Assembly (NCBI GenBank): GCA_963558965.1
Contig: CAUWIT010000008.1
Coordinates: 11,423 to 75,422 of the forward strand
From: an uncultured Clostridia bacterium
GTDB lineage: Bacteria > Bacillota > Clostridia > Peptostreptococcales > Anaerovoracaceae
Reading direction: 5' to 3'
Length of the DNA stretch: 64,000 nt
Part shown: positions 40,888 through 62,738 of the stretch, piece by piece
How positions within the stretch are numbered: the stretch's first letter is position 1
Layout: every line of letters begins with the position of its first letter
Position numbers and translations under genes: made by a program
The notes under the pieces: model-generated
Told to the model about the DNA's origin: nothing
Database searches by the model: none
The model's input: only the letters and a program-made list of their open reading frames with translations

Positions 40888-40992
40888 ACCGTATTAATGT
40901 ATCATCTCACAAGGTTTTTGTCAATGATTAGAATCAAAAAAACAAAATGGACTACCTAAATCGGTAGTCCACCTTGTTACTTAGAATAGAGC

Positions 40993-43900
40993 CTAGTGTG
41001 TTTTTCTGCGATAAAGTGCGCTTACTCCTAATGCCGCCAATGCCATTAGTGATGCATATAGTGCCCTAGGTGTTTCATCACCAGTCTGTGCAGATTTTTC
41101 TTCTTTTTCAGGTTTCTGTGTATTTACAGGTTTCTGCTGGTCTGCTGGTTTCTGTGTATCAACAGGTTTCTGTGTATCTGCTGGCTTCTGAGGATTTACA
41201 GGTTTTTCTGTATCTCCAGGTTGCTGCGGATCTACAGGTTGCTGTGGGTCTACTGGTTTAGAATCCTCAACTAGTTTTGCATAAGTTTTTTCAGCTTCAG
41301 TTAATACACTGATATTATTTACTAAAGCTTTTTGATCATCTGTTAACGCATCGTATGCCGCTCTTGCTTCTTCTAAAGCTTCCTTGCTTTCTAGTGTTAT
41401 TGTTCCTAGTGCATTGATTTTTTCGATTACTACTTTTGCAGCTTCTTTATTAGCTTTGTCTTGTTCAACTAGCTCTGCATATTTAATTTCACCTTCAAGT
41501 AATTTGTCCAAAGAAGTTACTAAAGCCTTTTGCTCATCTGTTAATGCATCATATGCTTTTCTTGCTTCTTCTAAAGCTTCTTTGCTTTCTAATGTTATTG
41601 TTCCTAGTGCATTGATTTTTTCTGTTACTTTATTTGCAGCTTCTTTATTAGCTTTGTCTTGTTCAACTAGCTCTGCATATTTTGTTTCTGCTTTTGTTAG
41701 AGTTTCATAATTTGTTACACCATCTTTTAACTCTTTTTCTAAAGCATCGTAAGCTGTTCTTGCCTTGTTGATAGCCGCTTCACTATCTAAAGAAACTTCG
41801 CCTATTTCATCGATTAAACCAATAACATTTGCTACTGCTTTTTTATCTGCTTCAGCTTTATCATATATTTCTTTATATTTTGCTTCTGCTGCTACTAATG
41901 AATCGTAGTTTGTAACTCCAGCTTTATCATCTGCTGCTAACTTATCGTATGCTTCTCTAGCTGCATCGATTTTACCTTTGCTCTCTAAAGTAACTGTACC
42001 AATTGCATCTATTTTAGCTACAACATCTGCAATATTTTCTTCTTTAGTTAATTGAGCATCAGTTTTAATTTTATCCATTTCAGCCTTTTGATCTGCATAG
42101 AATTTATCAAGTGATTTTAAATCCTTACACTTGCTTGCTCCTTGTGTGAAAGATGATACGATTTTTGAAATTTCTTCTTTTTGTTCAGGACGATAATCAT
42201 CAAGATTTTTGTATTCCTTGATTTCAGTATAATAAGCTTTTACTTGTAATGAAAATATGTTGTTTTTAGCACTTTTAAGTTTGCTTTCATATTTTCTTCC
42301 TACGATTCTTTTTTCTGATTGTGTTAAACTGTCAAATGCTTCCTGTGCTTTTTCATAATCTGCTCTCTTGTCAAGTCCTGGTTTATTTCCTAAGCCATCT
42401 ATCAAATCTTTAGTAATCTGAGTTTTTTCTTTTACTTTATCAAGTTCTGATTTTGCATTGACAACACATTCATCTATGCCATTATCGGAAGTTAAATCGT
42501 TTATTTGCTTTTTGTACTTTTCAACAATAGTTTTAATTTCTTCTTGCTGCTCTGCAAAGTATTTATCGATTTTTTTGTATCCTTCGATTTCAGCTATAGC
42601 ATTTTCTTTGCAAACTTCTAATAATCTTGTTTCAGCATCTGTTAAAATCTTTAATGTTTCTTCAGAAATCTGTTTCTTTTGATCTGCTGTTAGTGAATCG
42701 TATTTAAGTCTAATAGAATTTATAAGACCTTTTTTAGTAATATCTACTTCACCTATGCTATTGATTTCATCTATTATAGTTTTTACTTTTTCTTCATCTG
42801 TTTTAGATGCAAATGTTTTTGCTTCTTCAAATGCTGTCAAATTGTTATCGATTGTTGTCTGATTAATGCTATTATCAGTACCATTTGCTAACATTTCATC
42901 GTAAACTTTTTTAACCAAAGGATCTTTTATTAGTTCATCATAATTAGAACTTGCTTTAAAATCTGCAATTTCTTTTACTAATTTATCTTTGTTTAAAGTA
43001 TTTGGTACTATTGGATTTCCCCATCCTGTATCCCAACAATCGCTACCATAGCCACAAACTGTAAATGACCATCTAATAACCATATTATTTTCGCAAGGTA
43101 CACCAGATGCTCCAACAGGAGAGTGTAAATCGTTATATTTAAATACCCATCCAGATAAATTAGTGTAATCAAATTCACCTAACCACTGGCTATCTCTAGG
43201 ATTAGCTAAATCGATATTATTTTCTTTTATATAATCCTCCAAAAATTTAGGAAGAGTTGCTGTTGTACTGCCTTTAGTGTCGTTTATTGAAGAAAGATAA
43301 AATGAATCTTCTGGGGATCCTGTCATATCTACTTCATATCCATTATCTTGTAAATTTCTTACAAGTACTTGTGCTACATTTTCACCTTCATAATATGGAA
43401 TTTTTTCAGGCTCCAACATATATCCCTGTCCTATATTTCCTTTTTCTACACATAGATATACATATCCTGCAGGAGTAATTTCTTCTTTTTCTTCTACTTC
43501 AACCTGAGCAGTGGGCACAAAATAATACTCATGGTTAGCTTCTGTTACTATCGCCTTATACTTACCAACTGGTATATTTGTAAATTTAACTTTACCATTT
43601 TCATCTGACACAGCCTCTGCAACTGTCTTATCAGATTGGTCGATTAGAGCAACTTTAGCATTTGGCTCAGCTAACAAATTGCCGCCCATCATAGGCTGGT
43701 AGCTCTTTAGATTTAACTCTATGTCATCGCCAAACTGGCACTTAGTTGATAATTCCTCAAAGTAAAGAACAACGTCATTCCACCCTGGATCACAATAAAC
43801 AAATAGTTCAACAATATCATTATCCTTTAATACAGCTTGATTAATTAATGACATACCAGGTTGTAGATGATTTACTGTAAATCCTACATTCATTGTTTCC

Positions 43901-46311
43901 TGGCCAAACATTTTAGTAATCCAACCAGTTGGTCCAACGCCTAAGTATTCAGTAGGATTTTTTTCAAAATCTTCGCCGTACATGTACTTATGCATTGCTA
44001 CTGCTGCATCTAATACAGTTACTTCACCTGCGTATTCATCTGCTTTTTTGTATCCATATTTTTCAGCTAAATCTGAAGTGACTTCTAAATCCTTATAAAC
44101 CCCTTCAAACAAGCTTACTTCGTTAGCTCTAACTGTAACTTTTACAACCTTGCTAATTCTATTAGCTTTGGCATCTTTTACAGCTTTATCTAGAGCTTTT
44201 ATTGCATTATTTATTTCATCTGTTGTCGCATCTTCGTTTAAAAGTACTTTTTCAGCTTCTGTTATTGCTGCATTTAAAGTAGCCTTAGTTCCTTCTTTGT
44301 ACTGGCCGCCTTCTGTACCTTCAACGATACTATCGCAAAATGTTTTTGCGCTGTCTATGCTCTTTTTAAGACCTGCTTTTTCATCTACAGTGCCCTTAAC
44401 TTTTACAGTAACGCTTACTTCTTGCTTATATAGCTTTTGCAATTTTTCATTTTCTGGATGTTTCACTGCAAATTTTCCATATTTAGCACTGCTTAGAAGT
44501 GATGAAATAGTTACTTCCTGTGTATTATCTTGTCTTGTTACTAATAAGTTGTCATGTTTTACAACTGCGTTGTTGCTTGACTTAAACTTGTTGTAGCCAG
44601 CTGACTCCATTTCTACTGAATCTTCGAAAAAGTCGTCTGGCACTATGCCTGTACCTTTTACATCTTTAACATTGTACGCCCATACGATATTTCCTGCTTC
44701 ATCTAGACGCATCTCTGCAAAAGCGTGTAAGTTTCCAGTTATATTGTTTTTATCCTTGTACTGATTGTCGTTGATGCCTGCAAAACAGTTTGCCTTTGCT
44801 TTTTCCATCAATGCGATTTCAGCATCTAGTCTTTCATCTGTTATAGCTATAACTTTTACAGGAATGACTTTTTCTACTGTCACACCTTCTCTTGTGAATA
44901 AGACTGTTAAGTTTACAACCTTGTCTTCTTTTTGGAAAACGTCTACATTTGCTCTGTAGCCTGTAATTTTTATAACGCTTTCATCTGAGCTTTTTACTTC
45001 GATTTCTTTGTTTTTAAATACAAAATTATTGTTTTCGTCTTTTATTCTAGTGTATCTAGGTAACTGGATATCACATTGACAGTTATTAGTATCTAACTTC
45101 TCTTTTGTATCAATATCTGTTAATAAATCTGCTGTATAGTATTTATCTAAAATAGCTTTTAGTTCTGCCTCTGTTGGCTTAGCCTGTCCGTTTCCTTTTA
45201 CAGTTACTTTAAATGTTTTAGTTTGTGTTTCAAAATCTCCTACTTTTTCAACATTGCTGTTAAGTACTGAATCATTAGCCTTAAATGTTGCTGTTAGAGT
45301 TACTTCTGTATCTTGTTCCTGAGGCGTAACTACTCCTGTTAAAGGATATAGTTTGCTATCTATACTTCCAGCTTTTAGATTGATTACATCTGTATTTGAA
45401 CTTGTCCAGTCTACTACTGACCAAGCTTTATTTAATCCAGATTTCATACATTGTGGCAATGTTAAGTCTTTTGTTACACTTGTAAGATCAGCATTTTCAC
45501 CTTTAATTTTATCTGCTGTAAGCAAGTCGCTTTCTTCTTTTATCTTGCTATTGAAATGAGCAACATCCCAGCCGATTGTTACAGTTCTTGAAGATGTAAC
45601 TGCTTCTGCATTGCCTTTTGAAAATACAAATGTGCAACTTACATTTTTTACATTTGTGTAACCGCCAAGTTCACCTTTGTTGTAATTTATTTTTCCATCT
45701 AGACCTACATATGATGTATCATTTGAAGTCTTAACAGATACGCTTACACCTTGTACTCCTTCGTAGTTATTTACTTTATTCGCTACGAAATCATTGATAT
45801 TTGTAACATTATCCTTGCAACTAGGTCTAAGTGCACCATATTCCTTGTCGAAAGCTTTTTTTGCAGCATCAACTGCTGATTGGTCTGCTGGGCTGATAGC
45901 ATCTTGATTGATCATTTTAATATTTTCAACTAGATTAGCTTCATCCCCTTTAGGTGTTATTGTTCTTTGAATTTTTACATATTTATCTTTTGTAATTGTA
46001 TATGTATATTCAGTTCCTGGATATATGGCATAAGTTCCATCTGAACTTGGTGTTACTTCTTCTTCGTATTCATAACCAAGATCCCAGTCTTCTTCCATAT
46101 ATGTAACTTTTATAGTTGGATTTTCAATATTATCACCTGTTAATTTATCAGTAATATTGAACTTCAAATTGTATTTTGTAACAGCTTTTGTAACTTTAGT
46201 TGTTGGATTTTTTTCAGCTGCAAAAGTTGCCACTGGACTACTTACTCCAGATACTATTAACATAAGTGATAGCACCCATGCTAACAGCCTTTTATACTTT
46301 TTAGATTCCAT
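40993..46311 (-). CDS. Large sortase-anchored surface protein with two DUF4430 (transcobalamin-C-like) domains, Ig-like domains and helical repeats
   Basis: Signal peptide; WLGEFDYTNLSGW motif; 66-aa helical repeats; PVDPQQ repeats; AQTGD followed by a hydrophobic stretch and RRK tail. Confidence 0.75.
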   Translation of the reverse strand: MESKKYKRLLAWVLSLMLIVSGVSSPVATFAAEKNPTTKVTKAVTKYNLKFNITDKLTGDNIENPTIKVTYMEEDWDLGYEYEEEVTPSSDGTYAIYPGTEYTYTITKDKYVKIQRTITPKGDEANLVENIKMINQDAISPADQSAVDAAKKAFDKEYGALRPSCKDNVTNINDFVANKVNNYEGVQGVSVSVKTSNDTSYVGLDGKINYNKGELGGYTNVKNVSCTFVFSKGNAEAVTSSRTVTIGWDVAHFNSKIKEESDLLTADKIKGENADLTSVTKDLTLPQCMKSGLNKAWSVVDWTSSNTDVINLKAGSIDSKLYPLTGVVTPQEQDTEVTLTATFKANDSVLNSNVEKVGDFETQTKTFKVTVKGNGQAKPTEAELKAILDKYYTADLLTDIDTKEKLDTNNCQCDIQLPRYTRIKDENNNFVFKNKEIEVKSSDESVIKITGYRANVDVFQKEDKVVNLTVLFTREGVTVEKVIPVKVIAITDERLDAEIALMEKAKANCFAGINDNQYKDKNNITGNLHAFAEMRLDEAGNIVWAYNVKDVKGTGIVPDDFFEDSVEMESAGYNKFKSSNNAVVKHDNLLVTRQDNTQEVTISSLLSSAKYGKFAVKHPENEKLQKLYKQEVSVTVKVKGTVDEKAGLKKSIDSAKTFCDSIVEGTEGGQYKEGTKATLNAAITEAEKVLLNEDATTDEINNAIKALDKAVKDAKANRISKVVKVTVRANEVSLFEGVYKDLEVTSDLAEKYGYKKADEYAGEVTVLDAAVAMHKYMYGEDFEKNPTEYLGVGPTGWITKMFGQETMNVGFTVNHLQPGMSLINQAVLKDNDIVELFVYCDPGWNDVVLYFEELSTKCQFGDDIELNLKSYQPMMGGNLLAEPNAKVALIDQSDKTVAEAVSDENGKVKFTNIPVGKYKAIVTEANHEYYFVPTAQVEVEEKEEITPAGYVYLCVEKGNIGQGYMLEPEKIPYYEGENVAQVLVRNLQDNGYEVDMTGSPEDSFYLSSINDTKGSTTATLPKFLEDYIKENNIDLANPRDSQWLGEFDYTNLSGWVFKYNDLHSPVGASGVPCENNMVIRWSFTVCGYGSDCWDTGWGNPIVPNTLNKDKLVKEIADFKASSNYDELIKDPLVKKVYDEMLANGTDNSINQTTIDNNLTAFEEAKTFASKTDEEKVKTIIDEINSIGEVDITKKGLINSIRLKYDSLTADQKKQISEETLKILTDAETRLLEVCKENAIAEIEGYKKIDKYFAEQQEEIKTIVEKYKKQINDLTSDNGIDECVVNAKSELDKVKEKTQITKDLIDGLGNKPGLDKRADYEKAQEAFDSLTQSEKRIVGRKYESKLKSAKNNIFSLQVKAYYTEIKEYKNLDDYRPEQKEEISKIVSSFTQGASKCKDLKSLDKFYADQKAEMDKIKTDAQLTKEENIADVVAKIDAIGTVTLESKGKIDAAREAYDKLAADDKAGVTNYDSLVAAEAKYKEIYDKAEADKKAVANVIGLIDEIGEVSLDSEAAINKARTAYDALEKELKDGVTNYETLTKAETKYAELVEQDKANKEAANKVTEKINALGTITLESKEALEEARKAYDALTDEQKALVTSLDKLLEGEIKYAELVEQDKANKEAAKVVIEKINALGTITLESKEALEEARAAYDALTDDQKALVNNISVLTEAEKTYAKLVEDSKPVDPQQPVDPQQPGDTEKPVNPQKPADTQKPVDTQKPADQQKPVNTQKPEKEEKSAQTGDETPRALYASLMALAALGVSALYRRKTH

Positions 46312-46392: not shown

Positions 46393-49300
46393 TTATTTTT
46401 TACTTTTAATTTTTACTACTGAGCTAAATGAGCTCTTTCTACCATCTTTTGATATGGCTCTTACTTTATAGTAGTAAGTTTTTCCCTTTTTAGCAGAAGT
46501 GTTTTTATATGAAATATTTTTAGTTGTGTACTGTTTTTTAAATGTACCTGTTTTATTTACTGTTGATCTATATACTTCATATTTATATGCCTTGCTTACT
46601 TTTGTCCACTTAATATATGGCTTAGTTGATTTTATGATTTTAATTGTAGGCTTTATAACTTTTGTCTTATATCTAATCTGTCCACTAGTGCCGACAAGTT
46701 TATCATTTTTGTTGTAAGCTCTAACTTTATAATAGTAAGTCTTACCTGGTGTTGCACCTTTATAAGTGTAGCTATTTCCTTTAGTTGTACAAATTCTAGA
46801 GTATTGACCTTTTTCGGATGTTGCTCTATAAACTTTATATGTTGTTGCTGTTTTTACGTCTTTCCAATTTAATATCGGTTTTCCATCAACTGAACGATAT
46901 AACATTTTGACAGATATATCGTAAGGACTTCTCGCTTTACTTACTATATTACTATATTCACTATTATTGCCATTTTTAGCAATTGCAACTACCTTATAGT
47001 AATAAGTGTATCCTGCTACAGCTCCTGTATTTGTATAACTTGTACCTGATGTTGTATATGTTTTTGAGTATTTTCCATTTTTACTAGTTGCTCTATATAC
47101 CTCATAACTGCTAGCATATTTAATCTTAAACCAAGTAATTCTAGGTGCTCCTTTATTTAAACTTACTGAAATTTTTGGAGCATCAACAGTTAATTTGCTA
47201 AAACTGTCTTCTGCTGCTAACAACACATCATAATTTGTAACAAACTTTTGTTCCTCGCTAGTTAAACTATTATATGCTTTTCTTGCATCAGCAATAGCTG
47301 TTTCTTTTTCAAAAGTTACTGTTCCGATTCCATTGATTTTAGCAATTACAGCGTCTACTTTTTCCTTTGAAATTTCTTCTGCTGTCTTGATTTTGTCTAA
47401 CTTAGCTTTTGCTTCGTTTACGATATCCATCATTTCAGTTTCTGTAGTTGCACTAAACAATGCTGTTTTCGCTTCTAAAATAACATTATCTATTTCATCT
47501 TGCTGTGCCTTGTTATACTTTGATTTATCTTTGTAAGTTTCTATTATACTTAAATATTTATTTACTAATGAATCTTTTGATATAACTTTTACTGTTGATT
47601 TTCCTATAACAACTCCGTTTTCTGCTGTTGCAGCAATAGTTGTTTCACCAGCTTTAACTGCTGTAACATTTCCTTCTTGGTCAACTGTTGCAACTTCTTC
47701 ATCTAGAGAGCTCCAACTTAAATCCTGATAAGTCGCATCTATAGGATTTACTTTAGCCTTTATTTTAATCTTGCTATTTTCTAAGATAACAACTTCTTTT
47801 GGATTTAGTTCAATAGAAGCCACTGGTATTTTTTCTACAAGTCTTAGCTCGTAATTTTGTTTCGCCTTACCGTTTTCTGCTGTTACTTCAATAGTTACAC
47901 TTGCAGATTTAGTTTTATCGACTCTATATACTGCTGCATATTTATTTGAAGTTCCATTCAATTTTAATTCTGTACCTTTTTCAACTGCTTCTCCATTTCT
48001 CTTGCTTGCAACATTTTCATTTGCTAAAACCTTTACAGTTGCATTTGGATCTGTTGATTTTGCCCAAATCCTATAAAACTCATCTTCTTTTTGATCAGTT
48101 ATATCACAATCATAATTATAGACTTCACTTGAAAATTCATTTTTTAAAGGTATTAAATTGCTGTTGTAACTATTTGATGTGCTTACCTTTAGTTCGCTTA
48201 AAGTTGTAATAGCCGCAGTTTGAGAAATTTTCAAATTATATGTTCTTGCATATTCGCCATTAGATACTTTAATTGCTACATCTTTTGGTTTATCGCTTAT
48301 TTCTATTTTTTGCTTACCTTTGTATTCACTGCCATTAACAGTTACTTTTGAACCAGCAGATGCTTTTACTTCTAAATTAACGTATTTATCTTCACCTTTA
48401 ACTTTTACAATATAATTTCCATTTCGTGAATCAAAAGTTTGATCCCATGATACTGCGCTTTCACTATCTGTAGTAACTTTAATATCTTCAAGATATGCTG
48501 GGTTTGACTCTACTGCCATTAAATAGCAAGAGTCATTCTTGTAGTAGATAGTTCCCTTTTTATCTGCGCAAAGTGAGCTAATACAGTACTGCTGTTGTTC
48601 TTTAGGTGGTATAAATAACTCTGCACTGATTTTTGCTGCTTCACTTTGATCAGGAGTATCATAAGTGTAATAAATTCCTCCTGGATTTGCATTGTATGTA
48701 AAGTAGATATATACTCTTCCATCTGCTTTGCCATCATTGTTAAAATCGTCATTTACGTGAGCCGTAGACACTAAAGCTCCTGTTTGTGGGTAGCCTTTAA
48801 TAGGTATTCTATAAAGTTCTGAGTTGCTACTTAATTTTTCTTTGCTGTTATCGACTACTGCAAATCCATGGCCTCCGTCAGGGTTAAACTGACCACCTTT
48901 GCCACAAACTCCAATATATATTTTGTTTTTGTAGACTACTGGTGAAGCAGTTGTCATGCCCCCTAAATCAATGTAGCTATCTTCTCCTAAATTACCATTT
49001 TCATCTACTTTTATCTTATGTAACTGACCACCTTTTGTGCTGAAATACAAGTATCCATTGTCATACACTGTAGTAGTTCTAATATCACCTTTGATACCAT
49101 CTACTCTGCTAATAACTTCTCCTGTTTCAGTATCTAGTGTATAAAATACTGCATTTGTAGTGTATTCCCCTTCACTAGTTCCATCATCTGAACCTACTGC
49201 TATATACTTAGGTGTAGCATATGCACCAGCCCAATAAAAACCTCTAGGTGATGGGTTCGCTGAATTTTTAAGTTCCTTATCAAATGTTAGATTCCAATCA

Positions 49301-49983
49301 GGATTTTCTTTATCGCTTTTATTTCCAGAAGGTCTAAAAATCCACTTGAAATCCTTTATATCGCCATTTACATTTTCATCGTCAGTAGATACGCAAATGT
49401 ATTCACCATCTTTACTTTCGCCATTCCATGTACCTGTAACAATATATCCTTTGCCATCACTGCCTTTTGTATAGCTGATTGGAGAAACTGTCTGTCCTCC
49501 AATTTCTTCAGTGTGCCAAAGGGGCTCAAGAGTTTCATAATCGACAGCCTGTATCATGCCATTTCCAACTTGAGCAAATATTTTACCGTCTGCATAGATT
49601 AGTGGATTCATAGCATATCCCACATTTGCTACCATTTCATACGGGCTTCGCATAACCTCCTTTCCGGTTTCCTTATCCACTTTTACTATTTCTTTTCCCA
49701 CACCGATGTACAAATATCCGTCTAAAATAAGTGGCGGTGTTGGTGCTGCTCCCCAGCCAATTCCAAATTTACTTGCCCACTTTAGGTTTGTCGATTTGGC
49801 ACTAGTCGGGGTATTTACATCAGTAATACCATTGTTTTCCTGATTGTTTCTGAAGTTGTACCATTCTGCATTTGTAACTTCTTTAGCGTATCCAAATGAA
49901 GTAGGAACTATAACTGTTCCAAGCATCATAACTACGATAAAGAGCGACAAAAGCTTAGTAAACTTCTTCCCTCTAATACTCAT
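46393..49983 (-). CDS. Secreted protein: PQQ-like beta-propeller, cadherin-like sandwiches, Big_2 domain, helical repeat, three FnIII-like repeats
   Basis: Signal peptide from ATG 49983 (SD AAGGAGG); WYNFRNN..NNG and repeated W-blade motifs; YEVYRATSK / YYYKVRA repeats. Confidence 0.75.
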   Translation of the reverse strand: MSIRGKKFTKLLSLFIVVMMLGTVIVPTSFGYAKEVTNAEWYNFRNNQENNGITDVNTPTSAKSTNLKWASKFGIGWGAAPTPPLILDGYLYIGVGKEIVKVDKETGKEVMRSPYEMVANVGYAMNPLIYADGKIFAQVGNGMIQAVDYETLEPLWHTEEIGGQTVSPISYTKGSDGKGYIVTGTWNGESKDGEYICVSTDDENVNGDIKDFKWIFRPSGNKSDKENPDWNLTFDKELKNSANPSPRGFYWAGAYATPKYIAVGSDDGTSEGEYTTNAVFYTLDTETGEVISRVDGIKGDIRTTTVYDNGYLYFSTKGGQLHKIKVDENGNLGEDSYIDLGGMTTASPVVYKNKIYIGVCGKGGQFNPDGGHGFAVVDNSKEKLSSNSELYRIPIKGYPQTGALVSTAHVNDDFNNDGKADGRVYIYFTYNANPGGIYYTYDTPDQSEAAKISAELFIPPKEQQQYCISSLCADKKGTIYYKNDSCYLMAVESNPAYLEDIKVTTDSESAVSWDQTFDSRNGNYIVKVKGEDKYVNLEVKASAGSKVTVNGSEYKGKQKIEISDKPKDVAIKVSNGEYARTYNLKISQTAAITTLSELKVSTSNSYNSNLIPLKNEFSSEVYNYDCDITDQKEDEFYRIWAKSTDPNATVKVLANENVASKRNGEAVEKGTELKLNGTSNKYAAVYRVDKTKSASVTIEVTAENGKAKQNYELRLVEKIPVASIELNPKEVVILENSKIKIKAKVNPIDATYQDLSWSSLDEEVATVDQEGNVTAVKAGETTIAATAENGVVIGKSTVKVISKDSLVNKYLSIIETYKDKSKYNKAQQDEIDNVILEAKTALFSATTETEMMDIVNEAKAKLDKIKTAEEISKEKVDAVIAKINGIGTVTFEKETAIADARKAYNSLTSEEQKFVTNYDVLLAAEDSFSKLTVDAPKISVSLNKGAPRITWFKIKYASSYEVYRATSKNGKYSKTYTTSGTSYTNTGAVAGYTYYYKVVAIAKNGNNSEYSNIVSKARSPYDISVKMLYRSVDGKPILNWKDVKTATTYKVYRATSEKGQYSRICTTKGNSYTYKGATPGKTYYYKVRAYNKNDKLVGTSGQIRYKTKVIKPTIKIIKSTKPYIKWTKVSKAYKYEVYRSTVNKTGTFKKQYTTKNISYKNTSAKKGKTYYYKVRAISKDGRKSSFSSVVKIKSKK

Positions 49984-50014
49984 ACTTACCTCCTTTTTTA
50001 TAAAATATTTTTTA

Positions 50015-51289
50015 TTACCAAATATCAACTTCTTCACGCCATCCACCAGCGTTTACACTTATATATTCACGACCTAAAGAAGTTGTGAATCCCCATCGGA
50101 TTTCGTCCCCATCATTTAAATCTATATTGGAAGTTCCTGTTTCTAAGTATTCCCCATTTAAAATACATATCCAGCCAGAATCCTTATAAAAGTCAAACTC
50201 TCCTAAGCTGTCTTCTTTGTGTTTCATGATAGTGGCACCCTCAGCATCGAGTTTATCTTTTAATTTTTTAGGAATGGCATATCCGTTAGTTATACCGTTT
50301 TTGTAAATCCTGCTTAAGTATGCTCCTGTATATCCTGAAGATTTCATAGTATATGAAATGCCCTTGCTATCAAGCACTCTCTTAGTTACTTCCGCTATAC
50401 TTTCATCTTTATAAATATCTACAGTCATACCTGTTTCAACTATAGTTCCCTTACCTATAGTTTTAGCTTCAATAGTCACTCTAACTTGACCTATAACTTC
50501 TTTTTCTCCATTTGGATCTGCATAAATGGTGTAATTTTTAGTAATTGTATTATCTTCACTATCTTTTACAGTTATTGTTACTTTGTTTTCGCCTTCATTG
50601 ACGTCCCACTTGTATTTGCGTTCGTAGTTATTTGAACCAGAACTGCTAATTTTTTCGCCATTTACCCTAACTGTAAAATTAAATGCTTCTATTTTATATC
50701 CTTTGTAATCCTTAGCAGATAATTCAAATGACAATTTTAAACCTGCTATTGTCTCACCATCTTTTAGATTTGTTACAATAGTTGGCAATTTAGAGTTTTG
50801 GTCATCATCTCCTGGATTTTCTGGAACAACTGGATCGGTTGGTTTTTCTGGTTCTACCGGATCAGTTGGCTCAGTTGGTCCATCTGGACCATCTGGGCTA
50901 ATTTGCCCATCTGGATTTGTCGGTTTACCTGGACTTGTTGGGCCATCTTTACCATCGCTTGGTTTATTTTGTTTGCTCGGTTTTTCTTTTTCAATCTCCT
51001 GCTCTATACGATTTTCAAATTGATTTCTCTTTTCTTTTTCCTTTTTTTCAATTTGTTTTTGCTGTTGCTTCTGTTGTTTTTTGTATTCTTTTTCTTGATC
51101 CTTATTTAAAGAATACTTCTCCCCGCTAACTAGCACTTGCGAGCGATTTTTATTGATACTAGATATTGGATTTTCTCCTCTAGCCTCTGGTGTATTTTTC
51201 ACAACACCGTACAAAGCTCCAATTGAAATGGCCAAAATCACCAGTATTGCCACTGTAATTTTCTTTTTATTTGAAATGTTTTTTAACAT
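50015..51289 (-). CDS. Membrane-anchored DUF4430 protein with Pro-rich linker and Ig-like domain
   Basis: N-terminal TM helix, PT/PD-rich stalk, C-terminal SLGEFDFYKDSGW. Confidence 0.72.
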   Translation of the reverse strand: MLKNISNKKKITVAILVILAISIGALYGVVKNTPEARGENPISSINKNRSQVLVSGEKYSLNKDQEKEYKKQQKQQQKQIEKKEKEKRNQFENRIEQEIEKEKPSKQNKPSDGKDGPTSPGKPTNPDGQISPDGPDGPTEPTDPVEPEKPTDPVVPENPGDDDQNSKLPTIVTNLKDGETIAGLKLSFELSAKDYKGYKIEAFNFTVRVNGEKISSSGSNNYERKYKWDVNEGENKVTITVKDSEDNTITKNYTIYADPNGEKEVIGQVRVTIEAKTIGKGTIVETGMTVDIYKDESIAEVTKRVLDSKGISYTMKSSGYTGAYLSRIYKNGITNGYAIPKKLKDKLDAEGATIMKHKEDSLGEFDFYKDSGWICILNGEYLETGTSNIDLNDGDEIRWGFTTSLGREYISVNAGGWREEVDIW

Positions 51290-51294
51290 AACTC

Positions 51295-52230
51295 TTACCT
51301 TTTTTCTTGGTACAGTTTTTCATTTTTTTCTAATAGTTTAATGCTATCTAATGCTAAAAGTGCTTTTTCTGTTGCCATCACATTTGGATCATCACTGTCT
51401 TCATCAACTGTGTGTTTAAAACCGCCATCTGTTTTATATCTCATAAGTCCATCGTATAAGCTGTTGCCATCCTTTATAAATCTTTTATCATTTACAGGAT
51501 CAACTCCCACAGATGTTAGACCTATAATCACTTCTACTGTTGATTCGCAGTTTCCATAACTTCCGTCTTTTTGTTGCTTATCTGATAGCCCATCTACACA
51601 CTGGTCTATTGCACTTTTTACTTTTTTATCTTCCTTGTAGTAGCTTAGTCCTTGCAAATACATAGCCCCATAATCCACTATATTTTCAGTTTTATATGCT
51701 TTATTTTTTACTATCTCATCTGTCAATATATCTATGTACTTCTGTTCATTTTCAAGTTTTACACCTGCTACATTTGAAGCGATAAGGGCAAATGCCACTG
51801 CATTATTTCCTTGGTCTGTTACTTTTTTATAATTATCCAAAGGTTTGACTATATTGTATCCTTCTATATTTTCAGGATTTTCCCCTACGGCACAAACTCC
51901 AATAGTTACCCTTGCGTATTCCGTATAATACTTTTCGTCCAACACACCTTTTTCAGATTTTACAGTTGCCCTAACATCATCAAAATATGTGGTGAAGTAA
52001 CTTTGTTCATCATCTAACGAAATACCACTAGCTTTGACACCTTTAACCGCCCATTCTCCACCGACAGAACCTACACTTGCCGTTGGATTTAGCTCTTTGA
52101 CATCTGAAACTGTATCTTCAATTTGCTTGTTTATATCACCTTTGCCACAGCCGGTAAAAAACAATGCCATACACATGGTCAATACAACCAAAATAGATAT
52201 GCTACTTTTTCTTTTTTTGATTTTTTCCAT
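51295..52230 (-). CDS. Lipoprotein with alpha/alpha-barrel (prenyltransferase/squalene-oxidase repeat-like) fold
   Basis: Lipobox FFTG-C; QQKDGSYGNCESTVEVIIGL and DGGFKH QW-like repeats; MATEKALLAL. Confidence 0.72.
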   Translation of the reverse strand: MEKIKKRKSSISILVVLTMCMALFFTGCGKGDINKQIEDTVSDVKELNPTASVGSVGGEWAVKGVKASGISLDDEQSYFTTYFDDVRATVKSEKGVLDEKYYTEYARVTIGVCAVGENPENIEGYNIVKPLDNYKKVTDQGNNAVAFALIASNVAGVKLENEQKYIDILTDEIVKNKAYKTENIVDYGAMYLQGLSYYKEDKKVKSAIDQCVDGLSDKQQKDGSYGNCESTVEVIIGLTSVGVDPVNDKRFIKDGNSLYDGLMRYKTDGGFKHTVDEDSDDPNVMATEKALLALDSIKLLEKNEKLYQEKR

Positions 52231-54229
52231 GAGATTTCTTCTCCTTTTTAAGCCTCTTCAAACTTGCCGCCATGTTTTCCCTATCTTCTTCACTTATCTC
52301 ATCTTGACTGTAAGCAGCCTTGTTACCTAAGATTTTTTCTTCTTCGCCTATATCCAATTTCAGTTCTTCCATATAGCCATACATAGCAGCTACAGCGACT
52401 TTGGCCTCGCCTTTTTTAAACAACTTGTTTCGTCTGTAAATAACTATCCATTTTTTAACACATCTATAGAGGAAATAAATTAACAATAGTAGTAACAATC
52501 CTAAAATTGCAATAGTTACAATCACTCCAATTTTAAAATCTATATCTTTGTTAGTCTTGTTTTCCTTTGTTTGTTGCTTGCTTTTAACACTGTTGTTATT
52601 TTGTTCAAACTTCTTTTTAACAGCATTATTTGACAATCCTATTGTCATATCTGCTTCTTCCATGCGACCTTCGTACTCTGGGCAAACTTCAATAGGTACA
52701 AAACCTACACCATCTACATATATTTCTGTCCATGCATGAATGTCTTTTGGGGTTATTTCTACTTTTTCTCCCGCCTTAGCTTTTTTCACAGCATCAGGTG
52801 TTAAAAGATACCCTTCTACATACCTAGCTGGTATGCCATAATATCTAAACATTAGAGTAGCCGCTGTTGCATAATGTATATCATAGCCTTTATTTTTTTC
52901 GAAAATAGCTGAGGTTACATCTGTATTTTTATCTGTGATTAGTCCTGGATTTTCAGTATACAAAATGTTTTCATCAAGATATTTTTTTACCTTGTTTATA
53001 GCTGTTTTGTATTCTATATGTCCTTTTGATTGATCACCTTTATTGCCGATATAGTTTTTCATCAATCTTATATCGCTAATAGATAAATATGTGTATTTTT
53101 CATAGACAAACTGATTGTAATAGCTTTCGTTTACTAAATATTTTTTCATATCTTTTGTTTTTTCTTTAGTAAACATTTTGGCTGCTATTTCAGTCCAGTT
53201 TTTTACGCTGTTTTGTTTTGTCTTATATTGATAGCTTTTCATCTTACTTCTATTGTTTTTTGTAAGATAATTGTTGTACCAATTTACTTCGTCTCCACCT
53301 AGCTCGCTTATTTCATAAGGAATATATCCATATTTTTTATTTGCCTTTTTTACATTTATCTCTACGTCTATATCCTTGTCTTTTGTTCCAGTTAATATGC
53401 CCGCCTGTCCTATTTGACCCATGCCATTGAAATTTTCTTTTTCTAGCCAATACATTAGATTTTTTGATTGGTCATAATCTTCGTAAGGAAGTGTTTCCCA
53501 TGTATTTCCGTTATGTACTTCGCCAACAAATCCTCTTAAATACATGGATTGTGGTTTTGACATAGTTACTTCCAACGCTACTTGGTCTTCGTCTACATCT
53601 CGTTTTGTTTGGTACAAATCACCTCCACCTAGGGGAGATTTGCCATATTTAAATTGGTCTATTTTCTTTTCTATTTTTTTATCAATTAGTCCAATTTTGT
53701 ATGGTCTTGTCATATATTTGCTAGTTGCCGGCAAAAAAACTAATGTTAAAACCAGCGAAACCATCAAAGCAACCAATATGACATTCCACCTTGATAAGCT
53801 CTTTTGGTTTATGTATATAAAATCAAGTGCCAATGCGCCTACAAGGACAATGGCCCACAATACTGCTGGGGCTAGGCTTGTCACTAATGTGGGGATCAGA
53901 GGTATTGCCACAAAAATTAAAAGTAGCCACTTGTTTTCACTTTTAAAAATCAACCAGCTTACCAATGCAAATGCGATTATTGTAATGGGGATAAATAAGC
54001 TAAAGCTGTCGCTTGCTCCTGATAATTCTTTTAAAACTATCCCGTCATCATTTAAAACTGTTGTTGCTATAGTGTTCCACAACTTTTTGAAGCCTATTGT
54101 AAAGTTAGTTATGTTGAAAACACTACAAAAACATCCGACTTCTGCAACAGCTGTAAATACACATAGCAAAAGCGTTACGAATTTATTATTTTTTAAATTG
54201 TTCTGGTCTATATAAATTAACTTTTCCAT
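52202..54229 (-). CDS. Membrane protein with transglutaminase-like domain (catalytic Cys replaced)
   Basis: Multi-TM N-terminus; GYDIHYATA...GIPARYVEGY...HAWTEIY. Confidence 0.8.
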   Translation of the reverse strand: MEKLIYIDQNNLKNNKFVTLLLCVFTAVAEVGCFCSVFNITNFTIGFKKLWNTIATTVLNDDGIVLKELSGASDSFSLFIPITIIAFALVSWLIFKSENKWLLLIFVAIPLIPTLVTSLAPAVLWAIVLVGALALDFIYINQKSLSRWNVILVALMVSLVLTLVFLPATSKYMTRPYKIGLIDKKIEKKIDQFKYGKSPLGGGDLYQTKRDVDEDQVALEVTMSKPQSMYLRGFVGEVHNGNTWETLPYEDYDQSKNLMYWLEKENFNGMGQIGQAGILTGTKDKDIDVEINVKKANKKYGYIPYEISELGGDEVNWYNNYLTKNNRSKMKSYQYKTKQNSVKNWTEIAAKMFTKEKTKDMKKYLVNESYYNQFVYEKYTYLSISDIRLMKNYIGNKGDQSKGHIEYKTAINKVKKYLDENILYTENPGLITDKNTDVTSAIFEKNKGYDIHYATAATLMFRYYGIPARYVEGYLLTPDAVKKAKAGEKVEITPKDIHAWTEIYVDGVGFVPIEVCPEYEGRMEEADMTIGLSNNAVKKKFEQNNNSVKSKQQTKENKTNKDIDFKIGVIVTIAILGLLLLLLIYFLYRCVKKWIVIYRRNKLFKKGEAKVAVAAMYGYMEELKLDIGEEEKILGNKAAYSQDEISEEDRENMAASLKRLKKEKKSHGKNQKKKK

Positions 54230-55268
54230 ATTCCAAAAATCTTTCTAATGCTACATCTCTGTTTGATACTACTGCAAAATTCGAATAATTTTTATCGCAC
54301 TGTGCTTCTATAAACTGTTCGCTTACAGGTCTTAACTTATCTGTAAAAGGACTTGTTAAAAACTCTGGCAAAATAGACCACAGGTCTTCTTCGTCTTCTA
54401 TTTTAAAAGTTACAAATTTTTGTTTTGTCCAGTTATACCAACCTATATTGTGTGGTATATTTTTTCGTAAAAATGTATATGACAGGGATACTGCAAATTC
54501 TGTTGCTTGGCTTTTCTCGATTTTTCCAAATGTTTCATCTTGCAATATGCCTTTGTCTACGATTATCATCAGTTTGTTATCAACGGGTAACCCTAGCTCT
54601 CTTATAACTATGTCATCCATTTTTCCTGATAGTTTCCAATGTATTGATTTAATGTTGTTTCCCGGCTGATATGTGTTAATACCAAAAGTTTCACTGCTGT
54701 CATTACCTTTTTTATTTGGTGAAAATTTGTAGCTTTCCATATCGTAATGGCTCTGTTCTTCTTTTGTAATATCAAGCTCTCTTACTTGGGGCAATACATA
54801 TACATAGTCATATAAGTCTTCTTCTATTTTTTCTGACATTTTGCCAAAGGTGTCCTTCACTTCCACTTCTTTTAGTTCAACTAAAATACCGCCGCAAAGT
54901 GAATCTTTTATTTGAAATTTTATTTCTTTTTTTCCTTTTGGTCCTATGTTTACAATCCAATTTTCACTGTCTTTTTGTCCAGTAATTATATTTTTTATAT
55001 GGACTTTTACAGATATATTTAAAATTGGCATCTGACCTTGGTTTTTCAATTTTACTGTGATTTGGTTTTGCTTATCTGCTGAAACTGTTTCCATAGATAC
55101 TTGCAAATTTTTCTTGCCTTTTTCAACCATGATTTTTGAAAATACAAGATACAAAACTGTCAATAGTACAAGGCTTGAAACTATCATTCCTTCTTTTGAT
55201 ATATATGCAAATATTGTTACAGCCAAAATAGCTAAAACCAAAATCAATTTCTTTATCTTATTTTTCAT
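54186..55268 (-). CDS. DUF58 domain protein (MoxR partner)
   Basis: GNDSSETFGINTYQPG..IHWKLSGK motif; N-terminal TM helices. Confidence 0.82.
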   Translation of the reverse strand: MKNKIKKLILVLAILAVTIFAYISKEGMIVSSLVLLTVLYLVFSKIMVEKGKKNLQVSMETVSADKQNQITVKLKNQGQMPILNISVKVHIKNIITGQKDSENWIVNIGPKGKKEIKFQIKDSLCGGILVELKEVEVKDTFGKMSEKIEEDLYDYVYVLPQVRELDITKEEQSHYDMESYKFSPNKKGNDSSETFGINTYQPGNNIKSIHWKLSGKMDDIVIRELGLPVDNKLMIIVDKGILQDETFGKIEKSQATEFAVSLSYTFLRKNIPHNIGWYNWTKQKFVTFKIEDEEDLWSILPEFLTSPFTDKLRPVSEQFIEAQCDKNYSNFAVVSNRDVALERFLEYGKVNLYRPEQFKK

Positions 55269-55270
55269 AG

Positions 55271-56203
55271 TTAATCAAGTTTCGGTGCTACTACTTCTTT
55301 TAAAATATCTTCTAAAACTGCTGTGCTATCTTTATCTGCAAGCTGAGCTTTTGGATGAAGGATAATTCTGTGTTTATTAACATCTACGTACAATTTGTCT
55401 ACGTCTTCTGGTGTTACAAAATTTCTACCTTGTACATAGGCCTCAGCTTTAGCAATAGATGCAAGAGCCAATGCTCCACGAGGGCTTACGCCAAGTTTTA
55501 CCAAAGGATGATTTCTTGTCCCTTCTGTTAAAGCAGTTATATATTTATATATTTTTACATCTACAAAAGTATCCCTTGCTTCTTTTATCATATTTTCCAG
55601 TTGCTCTACAGTTAGAACTTGTTCTATTTTATATAAGGGATCTTCTTTATCTCTGTTTTGCAATATAGCAACTTGGTCTTCAAAGCTAGGATATCCCATG
55701 GAAAGCTGTATCATAAATCTATCCAGCTGAGCTTCTGGCAACATCTGTGTGCCGATAGTGCCTATAGGGTTTTGTGTTGCCATTACTATAAATGGATGTG
55801 GCACATCATGTGTAACTCCATCAACTGTTACTTTGCCTTCTTGCATTACTTCTAGCAAAGCTGACTGAGTCTTACTTGAAGTTCTGTTTATTTCATCTGC
55901 CAAGAAAAAGTTGCACATAGCTGCACCTGGATTGTATTTAAATGATCCTTTTTCCTTATCATACATAGTGAAACCTGTTATATCTGAAGGAACCACATCA
56001 GGTGTAAACTGTACTCTGTTAAATTTAAGTCCCATAGCTTTTGTACAGGCCAATGCCAATGTAGTTTTTCCAACTCCTGGTATATCTTCTAACAAAATAT
56101 GGCCTCCAGCTAAAATAGCTACTAAAACTTTTTCAATAACTTCGTCTTTACCTGTTACAGCTTTTCCTATTTCCTCTTTGATTTTTAAGATTTCTGTATT
56201 CAT
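55271..56203 (-). CDS. MoxR-family AAA+ ATPase
   Basis: EDIPGVGKT, RVQFTPDVVPSDITG, DEINR, ATQNP, LPEAQLDRF. Confidence 0.93.
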   Translation of the reverse strand: MNTEILKIKEEIGKAVTGKDEVIEKVLVAILAGGHILLEDIPGVGKTTLALACTKAMGLKFNRVQFTPDVVPSDITGFTMYDKEKGSFKYNPGAAMCNFFLADEINRTSSKTQSALLEVMQEGKVTVDGVTHDVPHPFIVMATQNPIGTIGTQMLPEAQLDRFMIQLSMGYPSFEDQVAILQNRDKEDPLYKIEQVLTVEQLENMIKEARDTFVDVKIYKYITALTEGTRNHPLVKLGVSPRGALALASIAKAEAYVQGRNFVTPEDVDKLYVDVNKHRIILHPKAQLADKDSTAVLEDILKEVVAPKLD

Positions 56204-56251: not shown

Positions 56252-56283
56252 TAAAAAAAAGACTATTTGCATTACAAATAGCC
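56252..56283 (-). terminator. Attenuator terminator of cobalamin riboswitch 1
   Basis: GGCTATTTG-TAATG-CAAATAGTC followed by a U tract on the minus strand. Confidence 0.8.
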
Positions 56284-56320
56284 CGTATATCTATCTATTA
56301 CAAATGATACTCGTCATTGA

Positions 56321-56485
56321 TATTTTCAAGCAAGTCTCCTGACTTGTGCATCATCACAGACCTTTGCCATCCCAAAAAAACTCTTATTTCAGTGGCTTAT
56401 TAAAGGGCTGCTCCTCACTTACAGTGGCGGTACCGTACAGGACTTTAACCTGTTTCCTTTATTAAGTATATTAACACTTGAAAAT
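56321..56485 (-). promoter_or_regulatory. Cobalamin riboswitch, long class-I type
   Basis: AAGGAAACAGGTTAAAGTCCTGT...CCGCCACTGTAA...GCCACTG...GGGATGGC...AAGTCAGGAGACTTGC; own promoter TTGACA(56527-56532)-17-TAAAAT(56504-56509). Confidence 0.93.
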
Positions 56486-56523
56486 CTATTCCCCTGTCCT
56501 AATATTTTATATCTTTAGCATTA

Positions 56524-57273
56524 TCATGTCAACAATGCTTTTACAGTTGATTCGCACTGTCTACTCTCTACAGTCATTGAAAACTGTGGATTTTTAGCCT
56601 GTCTAACAATTTCGACAATTTTCTTTATATCCATATTTCCCTTATCTATTGGATTGTGCTCATCTTCGCTTCCAAAGTTGTTATGTATATGCATATGAGT
56701 CACATAAGGAGCTAAAACTTTTGCCCATGTTTCCACATTTATTTCCTTGTCGGTCATAGCATTTGCATGGCCCACATCTAGACATATGGTCGCTCTTTTA
56801 TCGTCTATTGCTTCTATTAGATCTCGCATTACATATGGCTCATCTTCGAAAACGTTTTCTATCATTATATTAAAATCCGCCGGTTTATCACGTAAAAATG
56901 TTCTCCAAAACTTTACGGATTTTTCTATGTGCCACTGTTTATAATACAAAAGAGGTATGTAACCTGTGTGTACAACCATTCTTTTAACTCCTAATTCTTT
57001 ACAGATATCGTATGCCTCGTTTAACCTATCTAAGCCTAACTGAACAGCTCTTGGATCTATGGACGCCGGTATGATTTCAGTAAAAGGCCCATGAACTATA
57101 GCTTTTTGAGCATTTGATGCAGCGAAATCCTTTTTCATTTGTCTCAATGTTCTTTCTCGTCTATCTAAATTTTCAGAGATGCAAAGATGGTTAAATTCCA
57201 TGTTTACTCCATATTTATTTATCACTTCTATGGCATTTTCTGAAAAAGTAGCCACATATATATTAGTATTCAT
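56524..57273 (-). CDS. Xylose-isomerase-like / AP endonuclease 2 TIM-barrel metalloenzyme
   Basis: VHGPF, VVHTG, IENVFE, LDVGHA, HMHIHNN, HNP, TVES metal-ligand pattern. Confidence 0.82.
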   Translation of the reverse strand: MNTNIYVATFSENAIEVINKYGVNMEFNHLCISENLDRRERTLRQMKKDFAASNAQKAIVHGPFTEIIPASIDPRAVQLGLDRLNEAYDICKELGVKRMVVHTGYIPLLYYKQWHIEKSVKFWRTFLRDKPADFNIMIENVFEDEPYVMRDLIEAIDDKRATICLDVGHANAMTDKEINVETWAKVLAPYVTHMHIHNNFGSEDEHNPIDKGNMDIKKIVEIVRQAKNPQFSMTVESRQCESTVKALLT

Positions 57274-57838
57274 CTATGTTTACATCCTTACCGTTGTCAC
57301 ATGTATATACCCATACGACTTTATCATTGTTTTTTAACTTGTATTGAGAACATCCGTAATTAGGATATTTTTTATTTACATAATACTGCCATCCACTTAA
57401 CTTGCCACCATCAAATTCGTAAATGTGATTGATACCTTCTACATAATATGAATCGTAGGATTTTGTATAGCTGTACTCAGTCTGTATGTTTTCCTTGTTT
57501 GTAGCTTTTTTTAACAAATCAAAAGCAGTTGCATCTTTTTCAAGAGTATACTGAGTTTCCTTTAATATAACTCCATCTTTTGGAACCCATTTTGCTTTTT
57601 CCTGTTTTTTTAGTTTGTCCATATTGTTAGATAAATTGTCGCACCTTATTTCCATAGTAACTTTTATAGTATTTTTACCATCTACATCTTTTTGTGCGTC
57701 CTTCATAGCCTTGTCTTTCGTTTCAATATTCATCGTCCCAAAGACAACTATTGCAACAACAACTAAAATACATATAATCCCTATATTTCTCTTCTTTTTA
57801 TTTTTTATTTTTTTCTCAAACTCACTCATAAAACTCAC
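57263..57838 (-). CDS. Membrane-anchored DUF4430 protein (likely cobalamin-binding partner of the ECF transporter)
   Basis: YYVEGINHIYEFDGGKLSGWQYYVN..YPNYGCSQY. Confidence 0.85.
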   Translation of the reverse strand: MSFMSEFEKKIKNKKKRNIGIICILVVVAIVVFGTMNIETKDKAMKDAQKDVDGKNTIKVTMEIRCDNLSNNMDKLKKQEKAKWVPKDGVILKETQYTLEKDATAFDLLKKATNKENIQTEYSYTKSYDSYYVEGINHIYEFDGGKLSGWQYYVNKKYPNYGCSQYKLKNNDKVVWVYTCDNGKDVNIDEY

Positions 57839-58770
57839 CTGTAAATACCGTACTTGATTTTAATCCTTTCAAGTTTTTTTATAAAACTATCTCCAAATAA
57901 AAATACGCAAATAGATGCTGTCAAAGCATGTACAAAATCATATGGAACTCCAGCTATATACAAAAGCTTTATTCCCTCCAAAGTGATTTTGCCTCCTCCT
58001 GGCATATTGGCATTGTTTACTACACTGCTTATATTCATAATGCCTCCATAGATAATAAAGGTCATAAGAAATGTCATAACCCCCATAGTTATCCCATCTA
58101 TAGGAAACTGCTTTCGCTGTAGAAGCAATCCGATCACAAGGCCTACACCTCCAAAAAGATAAAGTCTCCATCCTAAAAATCCATCTTTATCAGGCCAAAT
58201 TAAATAAACTATATACGCAACTAATATTGCAAAAACTATAGATAAAATAGGTCCTGCAACAACCTTAAAAGTTCGAGATTTCAGCTCTTCGTTTCTATCT
58301 TTGTTAAAAATAAGGCCTTCTAAAAATCCAAGAAGTCCCCAGCAAAACATCTGCCACGGAGTCCACGGCCCTTGACCCATATAAAAATTACATATCAGTC
58401 TGGACAAAGCCCCTATTAAAAATCCCGCTTCCGGCCCTAGAGCGATACCTGAAATAACCACCATAGCCGTACCTATTTGTATAGGCATAATAATATGAAA
58501 AAATGTATGCACAGTAACTGTTATAGCGCTCATCATAGCAATCAGCATTATCTCTCTAGCTTTTGGTTTTCGCTTTTCAAATACCATAAAAAATGGAGCC
58601 ATCGTTGCCGCCAAAATTATAAAGCTAACTAGCATATACATATTTTCCCCAAGCAATTTGTAACATAAAAATGAAGCTAAGGGAATCACAACTAAAATCA
58701 TGGCGCACATAACTTTCACACGTTTTTTGCTAGCCGCTTCGTACTGAGTTAAAGCACCTTCCTTAGCCAT
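57835..58770 (-). CDS. ECF transporter S component (CbrT-like, extended)
   Basis: GPEAGFLIGALS, GQGPWTPWQM..WG; lies in a B12-riboswitch operon. Confidence 0.85.
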   Translation of the reverse strand: MAKEGALTQYEAASKKRVKVMCAMILVVIPLASFLCYKLLGENMYMLVSFIILAATMAPFFMVFEKRKPKAREIMLIAMMSAITVTVHTFFHIIMPIQIGTAMVVISGIALGPEAGFLIGALSRLICNFYMGQGPWTPWQMFCWGLLGFLEGLIFNKDRNEELKSRTFKVVAGPILSIVFAILVAYIVYLIWPDKDGFLGWRLYLFGGVGLVIGLLLQRKQFPIDGITMGVMTFLMTFIIYGGIMNISSVVNNANMPGGGKITLEGIKLLYIAGVPYDFVHALTASICVFLFGDSFIKKLERIKIKYGIYR

Positions 58771-62261: not shown

Positions 62262-62287
62262 ATGTCCCTCATCTAACTCATATATAC

Positions 62288-62314: not shown

Positions 62315-62366
62315 CCTTATTTTTTACAACACAAAAACAACTTATCTGATCCTCCGTCAGTAAGTT

Positions 62367-62494
62367 AAAATATATATGCAGGTCTCTGGCTTAGGTTTTT
62401 AAATATCCTTCACAGTGGCGGGACCGCGCAGGACTTACACCTGCTTCCCTATTTACCAATTACATTTGCTTATGCAATTCGTACATATATTTTA
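62367..62494 (-). promoter_or_regulatory. Cobalamin riboswitch, short class-II type
   Basis: AATAGGGAAGCAGGTGTAAGTCCTGCGCGGTCCCGCCACTGTGAAGG...CCTAAGCCAGAGACCTGC; lacks the P8-P12 extension. Confidence 0.92.
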
Positions 62495-62738
62495 TTATTT
62501 TGCTATTTAGTATAATTTTATCCTTAAGTCAATTTAATGTAAATAGGTTTAAACAAATTTAGTCTTTAAACTCACCTAAAATTTACGACGTGTAGCAAAA
62601 GTCATTCCTGAATAATAAATATTATTTTTTGTAATGTCAATATATTTATATTAATACATTTTTCTGTGAATCTATTTACCTTTACGCTTTAGTATGGTAT
62701 AATTAAAAGGCTATTTATAATTGAAAGGAGGCGGTTTA

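Follow-up and report, generated by a model that had tools for sequence, protein, structure and literature searches.

An alpha/alpha-toroid lipoprotein and an adjacent DUF4430 protein of an uncultured Clostridia bacterium as putative parts of a riboswitch-controlled corrinoid-capture apparatus

Background

The mammalian B12 carriers transcobalamin, intrinsic factor and haptocorrin (2BB5, 2PMV, 4KKI) combine an alpha6/alpha6 barrel with a beta-grasp domain bearing a hairpin insert, and are soluble single polypeptides in which the alpha domain comes first. Intrinsic factor that has been cleaved into two fragments retains B12 between them and is still recognised by its receptor (PMC6257451). Here, a bacterial locus is described in which candidate counterparts of these two domains are encoded by separate, adjacent genes, namely an alpha/alpha-toroid lipoprotein of 311 amino acids (aa; 51295..52230 (-)) and a membrane-anchored DUF4430 protein of 424 aa (50015..51289 (-)). 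The locus lies in a stretch of 64,000 nucleotides from an uncultured Clostridia bacterium of the Anaerovoracaceae (assembly GCA_963558965.1, contig CAUWIT010000008.1, positions 11,423 to 75,422 of the forward strand), which is termed the window and to which coordinates refer. Immunoglobulin (Ig) matches aside, the mammalian carriers were the best structural matches of both proteins, which differ from them in being products of two genes, in sharing only 11-16% identity in structural alignments and in having no match to PF01122 (Cobalamin_bind).

Bacterial proteins of this kind were described in 2007 by Burroughs, Balaji, Iyer and Aravind, who reported fusions of toroids with transcobalamin-like SLBB domains in which either domain may come first, and predicted that the two cooperate in scavenging B12. 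These authors also noted that paralogous SLBB proteins share operons with CbiO/CbiQ genes, and suggested that the fused toroid-SLBB form passed to animals from Gram-positive bacteria (PMC1796856). Shared between those systems and the window are the presence of both domain types on exported or surface proteins, low-GC Gram-positive hosts, paralogous SLBB proteins, beta-propeller and Ig partners, and genes of the energy-coupling factor (ECF) type. The 2007 account stresses single-chain fusions and bacteria usually without B12 synthesis, whereas the window has separate genes in a genome that carries CbiJ and CobS. Unlike in those systems, the toroid gene of the window is situated in an operon with MoxR, DUF58 and TgpA-like genes and not in the ECF operon.

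A split pair was proposed by Verplaetse et al. in 2019 for Lactobacillus sakei, in which the exported, separately encoded proteins Lsa1839 (beta-like) and Lsa1840 (alpha-like) of the lsa1836-1840 ECF operon were modelled as a heterodimer feeding an S component (bioRxiv 10.1101/864751). This pair and that proposed for the window, likened here by description, embody the same idea of split alpha/beta tetrapyrrole scavenging. The L. sakei pair lies inside an ECF operon and haem was argued to be its ligand, whereas the window toroid belongs to a second riboswitch operon beside a long-type DUF4430 protein, and its regulation points towards corrinoids.

The importer of the window is most readily compared to ECF-CbrT of Lactobacillus delbrueckii (6FNP), the only PDB match of its S component, although ECF-CbrT as characterised works without an extracellular binding protein (PMC5997447). 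Surface capture ahead of a transporter is known from the Bacteroides BtuG/BtuH/BtuJ relay, in which surface lipoproteins encoded in B12-riboswitch loci capture corrinoids and of which BtuG is a beta-propeller (PMC6143338, PMC8941943, PMC13616437). Among the products of the window operon there is likewise a propeller protein, but the main binders of the Bacteroides relay have folds unrelated to those of the window, and that relay operates together with BtuB and an outer membrane. The Gram-positive counterpart of extracellular B12 capture is described in a 2026 review as entirely uncharacterised, and no paper was found in which a bacterial DUF4430 domain was tested for B12 binding.

The split toroid/DUF4430 arrangement is thus not new, having been predicted in 2007 and 2019 and being common in such bacteria. 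The split clamp proposed in a preliminary description of the window had been anticipated by both of these works (PMC1796856, bioRxiv 10.1101/864751). As the split was already proposed and recurs in most related loci, the locus opens no new question by itself. Particular to the window are the placement of the toroid gene in a MoxR/DUF58/TgpA-like operon, its position beside a long-type DUF4430 domain carried on an Ig-plus-stalk arrangement, and a ratio of toroid to DUF4430 proteins of 1:3.

The toroid lipoprotein

The ATG of the toroid gene is preceded by a strong ribosome-binding site, AAGGAG, 8 nucleotides (nt) to its 5' side, and its start is overlapped over 29 nt by the end of the TgpA-like gene. 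The signal peptide of the product ends in FFTG followed by C, which constitutes a lipobox, and a lipobox-like site was present in 40 of 50 toroid-family members. The AlphaFold2 model obtained with a 50-sequence alignment (predicted local distance difference test, pLDDT, 92.2; predicted template modelling score, pTM, 0.88) comprised 12 helices arranged as an alpha/alpha toroid.

By sequence, the lipoprotein itself was not assigned to a Pfam family at E<=0.01, PF01122 included, a direct PDB sequence search gave no match, and NCBIfam gave no model for either this protein or its 424-aa neighbour. Its homologues at 30-36% identity carry PF13243, PF00432 and PF13249. A Foldseek search of the PDB with the model, one of the checks proposed in the preliminary description, returned transcobalamin of human, rat and bovine origin at all of ranks 1-11 (TMq 0.54-0.60), the best match being 2bb5_A (E 2.4e-4, TMq 0.59). 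These were followed by drimenyl-diphosphate synthase, haptocorrin and intrinsic factor. The lipoprotein can be categorized from these comparisons as a member of the toroid superfamily whose sequence is nearest to cyclase repeats and whose modelled shape is nearest to the transcobalamin alpha domain.

A role as a terpene cyclase or prenyltransferase, which the preliminary description had named as one of the outcomes that would speak against its reading, was rejected. The catalytic DxDD motif was found in just two of 50 toroid-family members and at differing positions, and the DSDD of the window protein (residues 278-281) falls in alignment columns that are not conserved. As the protein is in addition exported with a lipobox, unlike the class II terpene cyclases and prenyltransferases, which are cytoplasmic or embedded in the membrane, it is not considered to be a cyclase-type enzyme, and the model describes a non-enzymatic lipoprotein with the predicted fold of the transcobalamin alpha domain. 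A thioester domain of the alpha-2-macroglobulin/complement type (PF07678) was also considered, owing to a GNCES motif, and was rejected: the motif is GNCES and not CGEQ, its Cys is not conserved (being replaced by Ser in the distant members P0066 and P0069), and complement chains rank low in the Foldseek results.

The 424-aa DUF4430 protein

The stop codon of the toroid gene (TAA, 51297-51295) is followed by GAGTT and then by the ATG of the 424-aa gene at 51289, giving a spacer of 5 nt. The encoded protein consists of an N-terminal hydrophobic transmembrane anchor, a Lys/Glu/Gln-rich segment, a Pro-rich stretch of approximately 60 aa that forms part of the stalk, an Ig-like domain (approximately residues 170-262) and a long-type DUF4430/SLBB domain of approximately 150 aa (264-413). 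Just past the anchor (residues ~31-62; window 51130-51200 (-)) lies the motif G-x-N-P-I-x-x-I-N-x-x-R-S-Q-x-L-V-x-G-E-x-Y-x-L, present in all orthologues with the same gene order, at which a membrane partner may dock.

Assignment of the C-terminal domain was near the threshold, with PF14478 scoring 22.0 bits in hmmscan (cut-off 23.8) and 24.6 bits in the genome search. Among orthologues, P0122 has a precomputed PF14478 match and P0123 is named a DUF4430 protein by NCBI. Direct searching of the PDB with the 424-aa sequence gave low-complexity matches only, and a word-based homologue search with its C-terminal 255 aa recovered only 5 proteins; an alignment was therefore built from orthologues in related loci. 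An eight-sequence orthologue profile matched the isolated transcobalamin beta domain 5no0 with an E-value of 0.023, two segments being aligned.

The AlphaFold2 model of residues 170-424 (pLDDT 83) shows the Ig-like domain followed by a beta-grasp, with strands at 95-104 and 112-123 (numbering of the C-terminal model), a helix at 128-138, a hairpin at 142-148/152-159, an extra helix and three strands. A hairpin placed after the helix is a mark of the transcobalamin-like SLBB clade. As the Foldseek query was this two-domain model, the resulting list was dominated by Ig and FN3 matches; transcobalamin, at rank 15 (152 columns, E 2.9e-3), was the highest-placed match that was not of the Ig type. 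The modelled DUF4430 domain thus weakly resembles the transcobalamin beta domain.

The physical outline given in the preliminary description was borne out by these analyses: two genes 5 bp apart, encoding a membrane-tethered alpha/alpha-barrel lipoprotein (lipobox, 12-helix model with pLDDT 92) and a membrane-tethered DUF4430 protein on a Pro-rich stalk (anchor and stalk present, PF14478 at the cut-off and a weak match to the transcobalamin beta domain).

Toroid and DUF4430 genes in other genomes

A profile search with the toroid family over 1.8 billion representative sequences identified 8,344 proteins at 50% clustering. Most of the top-scoring representatives were multidomain surface proteins, and 117 of the 150 best carried DUF4430 in the same chain, a proportion that overstates the fused share of the family as a whole because the ranking favours proteins with several toroids. 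The usual architectures were toroid-DUF4430-toroid or long-DUF4430/toroid/short-DUF4430/toroid, and the presence of both domains in one chain was confirmed with curated Pfam models on three examples. Simple two-domain fusions were identified in both orders, with P0235 having the toroid before DUF4430, as in transcobalamin, and P0061 the reverse.

Related loci were collected from metagenomes and named genomes, in part with a 13-sequence alignment, and in 76 of the 88 (a few being the same contig counted twice) a solo toroid gene was followed directly by a solo DUF4430 gene. This adjacency was found across many genera of Bacillota and, recurring to this extent, is not attributable to chance. Pairs with the short DUF4430 type occur, among others, in Desulfotomaculum, Paenibacillus, Sporobacter, Flavonifractor, Cohnella and [Eubacterium] saphenum. 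Genes in the same order as those of the window were found in Emergencia, Gallibacter, Brotonthovivens, Faecalimonas and Oscillibacter, and a propeller gene follows the pair in 18 of 19 cases with the long type. Judged by gene adjacency and by fusions, there is tight evolutionary coupling between toroid and DUF4430.

The riboswitch operon and the adjoining importer

The toroid and 424-aa genes are, as predicted from the arrangement of the DNA, co-transcribed behind a cobalamin riboswitch, as the fourth and fifth genes of a seven-gene operon of 15.6 kb (order MoxR, DUF58, TgpA-like, toroid, 424-aa, 1217-aa, 1772-aa). The aptamer at its head (56312..56496 (-)) matched Rfam RF00174 with 98.1 bits (E 2.9e-23). 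It is preceded by a sigma-70-like promoter identified by consensus match only (TTGACA-17-TAAAAT, 56504..56532 (-), 11/12 consensus matches), and in the interval between aptamer and first gene lies a terminator-like hairpin with a T-run (56260..56284 (-)), a putative attenuator. A strong terminator-like hairpin with a 16-bp stem and a T-run (40941..40978 (-)) closes the operon.

The first three genes encode a MoxR-type AAA+ ATPase (55271..56203 (-); PF07726, E 1.5e-54), a DUF58-like protein (54186..55268 (-); PF01882 at E 4e-4, below the cut-off, with its position kept in related loci) and a TgpA-like membrane protein with a transglutaminase core (52202..54229 (-); PF01841, E 4.4e-18), in which GYDIHYAT occupies the position of the catalytic Cys of the family. 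This triad (52202-56203 (-)) is kept together with toroid, DUF4430 and propeller genes, and was also found in L006, L009 and L030; in some genomes, such as that of L009, it stands in one operon with ECF genes, a CbiR-like gene, CobT, CobU and CobS. Downstream of the pair are a 1217-aa exported PQQ-like beta-propeller/Big_2/fn3 protein (46393..50046 (-)), whose function may correspond to that of BtuG, the propeller of Bacteroides, and a 1772-aa surface protein with one long-type DUF4430 domain (residues 946-1096) and a C-terminal tail resembling a sorting signal (40993..46311 (-)).

Directly upstream of this operon lies an ECF importer operon, headed by a second cobalamin riboswitch (62360..62503 (-); RF00174, 73.9 bits). 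The T component (60371..61258 (-)) was assigned from its position and polytopic membrane sequence, with PF02361 (CbiQ) being found at this place in L007. It is followed by a fused A-A' ATPase with two ABC cassettes (58749..60398 (-)), orthologues of which carry PF00005 twice, and by a CbrT-like S component of 311 aa (57835..58770 (-); PF07155), for which chain A of 6FNP (CbrT) was the sole PDB sequence match (E 5e-4). The S component is longer than CbrT (182 aa) by N- and C-terminal extensions, and in many related loci is fused to the A-A' ATPase. Beside its gene is encoded a membrane-anchored short-type DUF4430 protein of 191 aa (57263..57838 (-); PF14478, E 1.1e-19, 71 bits). The last gene of the operon encodes an AP_endonuc_2 TIM-barrel protein (56524..57273 (-); PF01261, E 2.4e-23), and as the same family recurs beside CobT, CobU and CobS in L006 and L009, it is a candidate CbiR-like cobamide-remodelling enzyme. 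This regulation and the type of transporter, both read from sequence, point to corrinoids as the ligand.

The first gene after the second riboswitch encodes an HNH-repeat protein (PF18780) without a nuclease domain (61260-62300 (-)), and a gene of this type occupies the same position in the related loci L002 and L003. Other RNAs identified in the window with Rfam were a group I intron and a raiA RNA, at 33891-34226 (-) and 1516-1678 (-).

The genome, of 1.63 Mb and 99.9% complete, was found by profile searching to contain a single toroid gene and to encode three DUF4430 proteins, every one of these genes being located in the window, and the partner of the toroid is therefore ambiguous. Four cobalamin riboswitches and B12-binding enzymes were also present. 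CbiJ is encoded downstream of another cobalamin riboswitch, and CobS is also present (C3:89934-90671, C3:98939-99129; C11:51746-52483).

Proposed function and alternative explanations

The favoured explanation, to which a probability of roughly 0.55 is assigned, is that both genes encode parts of a cell-surface corrinoid-capture apparatus repressed through B12 riboswitches, in which the toroid and a DUF4430 domain would form a clamp in trans and hand over their ligand to the CbrT-like S component. The DUF4430 domain would bind the corrinoid first, after which the membrane-proximal toroid would cap its other face, and formation of the heterodimer would depend on the ligand, as in IF30.Cbl.IF20, the complex formed by cleaved intrinsic factor. 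As there would be no covalent link between the halves, the complex could dissociate and transfer the corrinoid to the S component. At least two of the three DUF4430 proteins, among them the short one encoded next to the ECF genes, would probably share the single toroid. For the window pair, a clamp in trans is plausible by analogy with cleaved intrinsic factor; that its opening would hand B12 to the ECF S component we purely infer. The clamp proposed in the preliminary description is partly supported: it fits the predicted folds, the riboswitches, the CbrT-like importer and the evolutionary coupling of the two domains, whereas its choice of the 424-aa protein as partner is less secure, the short 191-aa DUF4430 protein being at least as strongly indicated.

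Several observations weigh against this explanation. The margin of transcobalamin over terpene cyclases in the Foldseek results was approximately one order of magnitude in E-value, and the only PDB relatives found with the toroid-family profile were squalene-hopene-cyclase-like (drimenyl-diphosphate synthase, E 1e-4 over ~115 residues), with no transcobalamin chain matched at E<=10 and PF01122 unmatched. The presence of CbiJ and CobS means that the organism may make or finish corrinoids besides scavenging them, so that dependence on scavenging is not certain. Most of the adjacent pairs, moreover, contain the other DUF4430 type, the short type being found in 57 of the 76 and the long type in 19. 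Of these 57, 49 are followed directly by an ECF T gene. Both simple fusions, P0061 and P0235, likewise carry the short type, and the DUF4430 half of P0061 shares 39% identity with the 191-aa protein across 163 residues, compared with a 45-residue match only to the 424-aa protein. In multidomain proteins, a short domain abuts a toroid (<=40 aa) in 66 of 160 cases and a long domain in 6 of 33. It is consequently conceivable, if doubtful, that the real partner of the toroid is the short DUF4430 protein (57263-57838), that its adjacency to the 424-aa gene is a secondary rearrangement in this lineage, and that long types are outer capture domains independent of toroids. Contrary to this, the toroid-then-long adjacency is itself kept in the 19 loci with tight spacing (5 nt in the window), and giant proteins of the long/toroid/short/toroid (LTST) architecture often begin with a long type followed by a toroid. 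With only one toroid in the genome, the two partnerships are not mutually exclusive.

It is unlikely that no clamp exists at all, with each DUF4430 domain binding a corrinoid alone and the toroid having a separate role, for instance in binding the ligand independently, in anchoring to the wall or a polysaccharide, or in serving the MoxR/DUF58/TgpA-like proteins as a scaffold. Consistent with such an arrangement, DUF4430 proteins outnumber the toroid 3:1, the 29-nt overlap couples translation of the toroid gene to that of the TgpA-like gene, and the PDB contains entries for an isolated transcobalamin beta domain (108 aa; 5no0 and related), which is reported to bind cobalamin. The recurrent pairing of toroid and DUF4430, in fusions and by adjacency, is however hard to explain without a joint function, and both domains of transcobalamin contact the ligand (PMC1796856). 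Capture of another tetrapyrrole in place of corrinoids is very improbable. The homologous L. sakei operon was linked experimentally to the uptake of haem and not of B12, with haem being docked into the modelled heterodimer (bioRxiv 10.1101/864751), whereas in the window both operons lie behind cobalamin riboswitches, the S component matches CbrT, and a CbiR-like gene is present, with CobT, CobU and CobS salvage genes in related operons. An active cyclase or prenyltransferase unrelated to B12 is hardly credible: the profile relatives in the PDB and the PF13243 and PF00432 domains of homologues are of this kind, but the protein is an exported, single 12-helix barrel under riboswitch control that is paired with DUF4430, and DxDD is nearly absent from the family.

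An extension of the favoured corrinoid-capture explanation, distinctly unlikely in its full form, would have the single toroid as a shared cap for three beta-domain proteins at different heights. The 191-aa protein would sit at the membrane next to the S component, the 424-aa protein would be raised on a stalk of ~100 residues, and the 1772-aa protein would be anchored in the wall. Together with the propeller protein, these would constitute an Isd-like inward relay of corrinoids through the Gram-positive wall, and the MoxR, DUF58 and Cys-less TgpA-like proteins would assemble or unload the complex.

Implications for B12 capture in Gram-positive bacteria

Extracellular competition for B12 among Gram-positive gut bacteria is poorly characterised compared with the well-studied BtuG/H/J relay of Bacteroides. 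The toroid/DUF4430 proteins, which are very common, are likely to be bacterial relatives of animal transcobalamin. Encoding a single toroid alongside three beta-domain proteins in a genome of 1.6 Mb, the locus described here represents a compact and well-delimited example that is suited to a first biochemical test.

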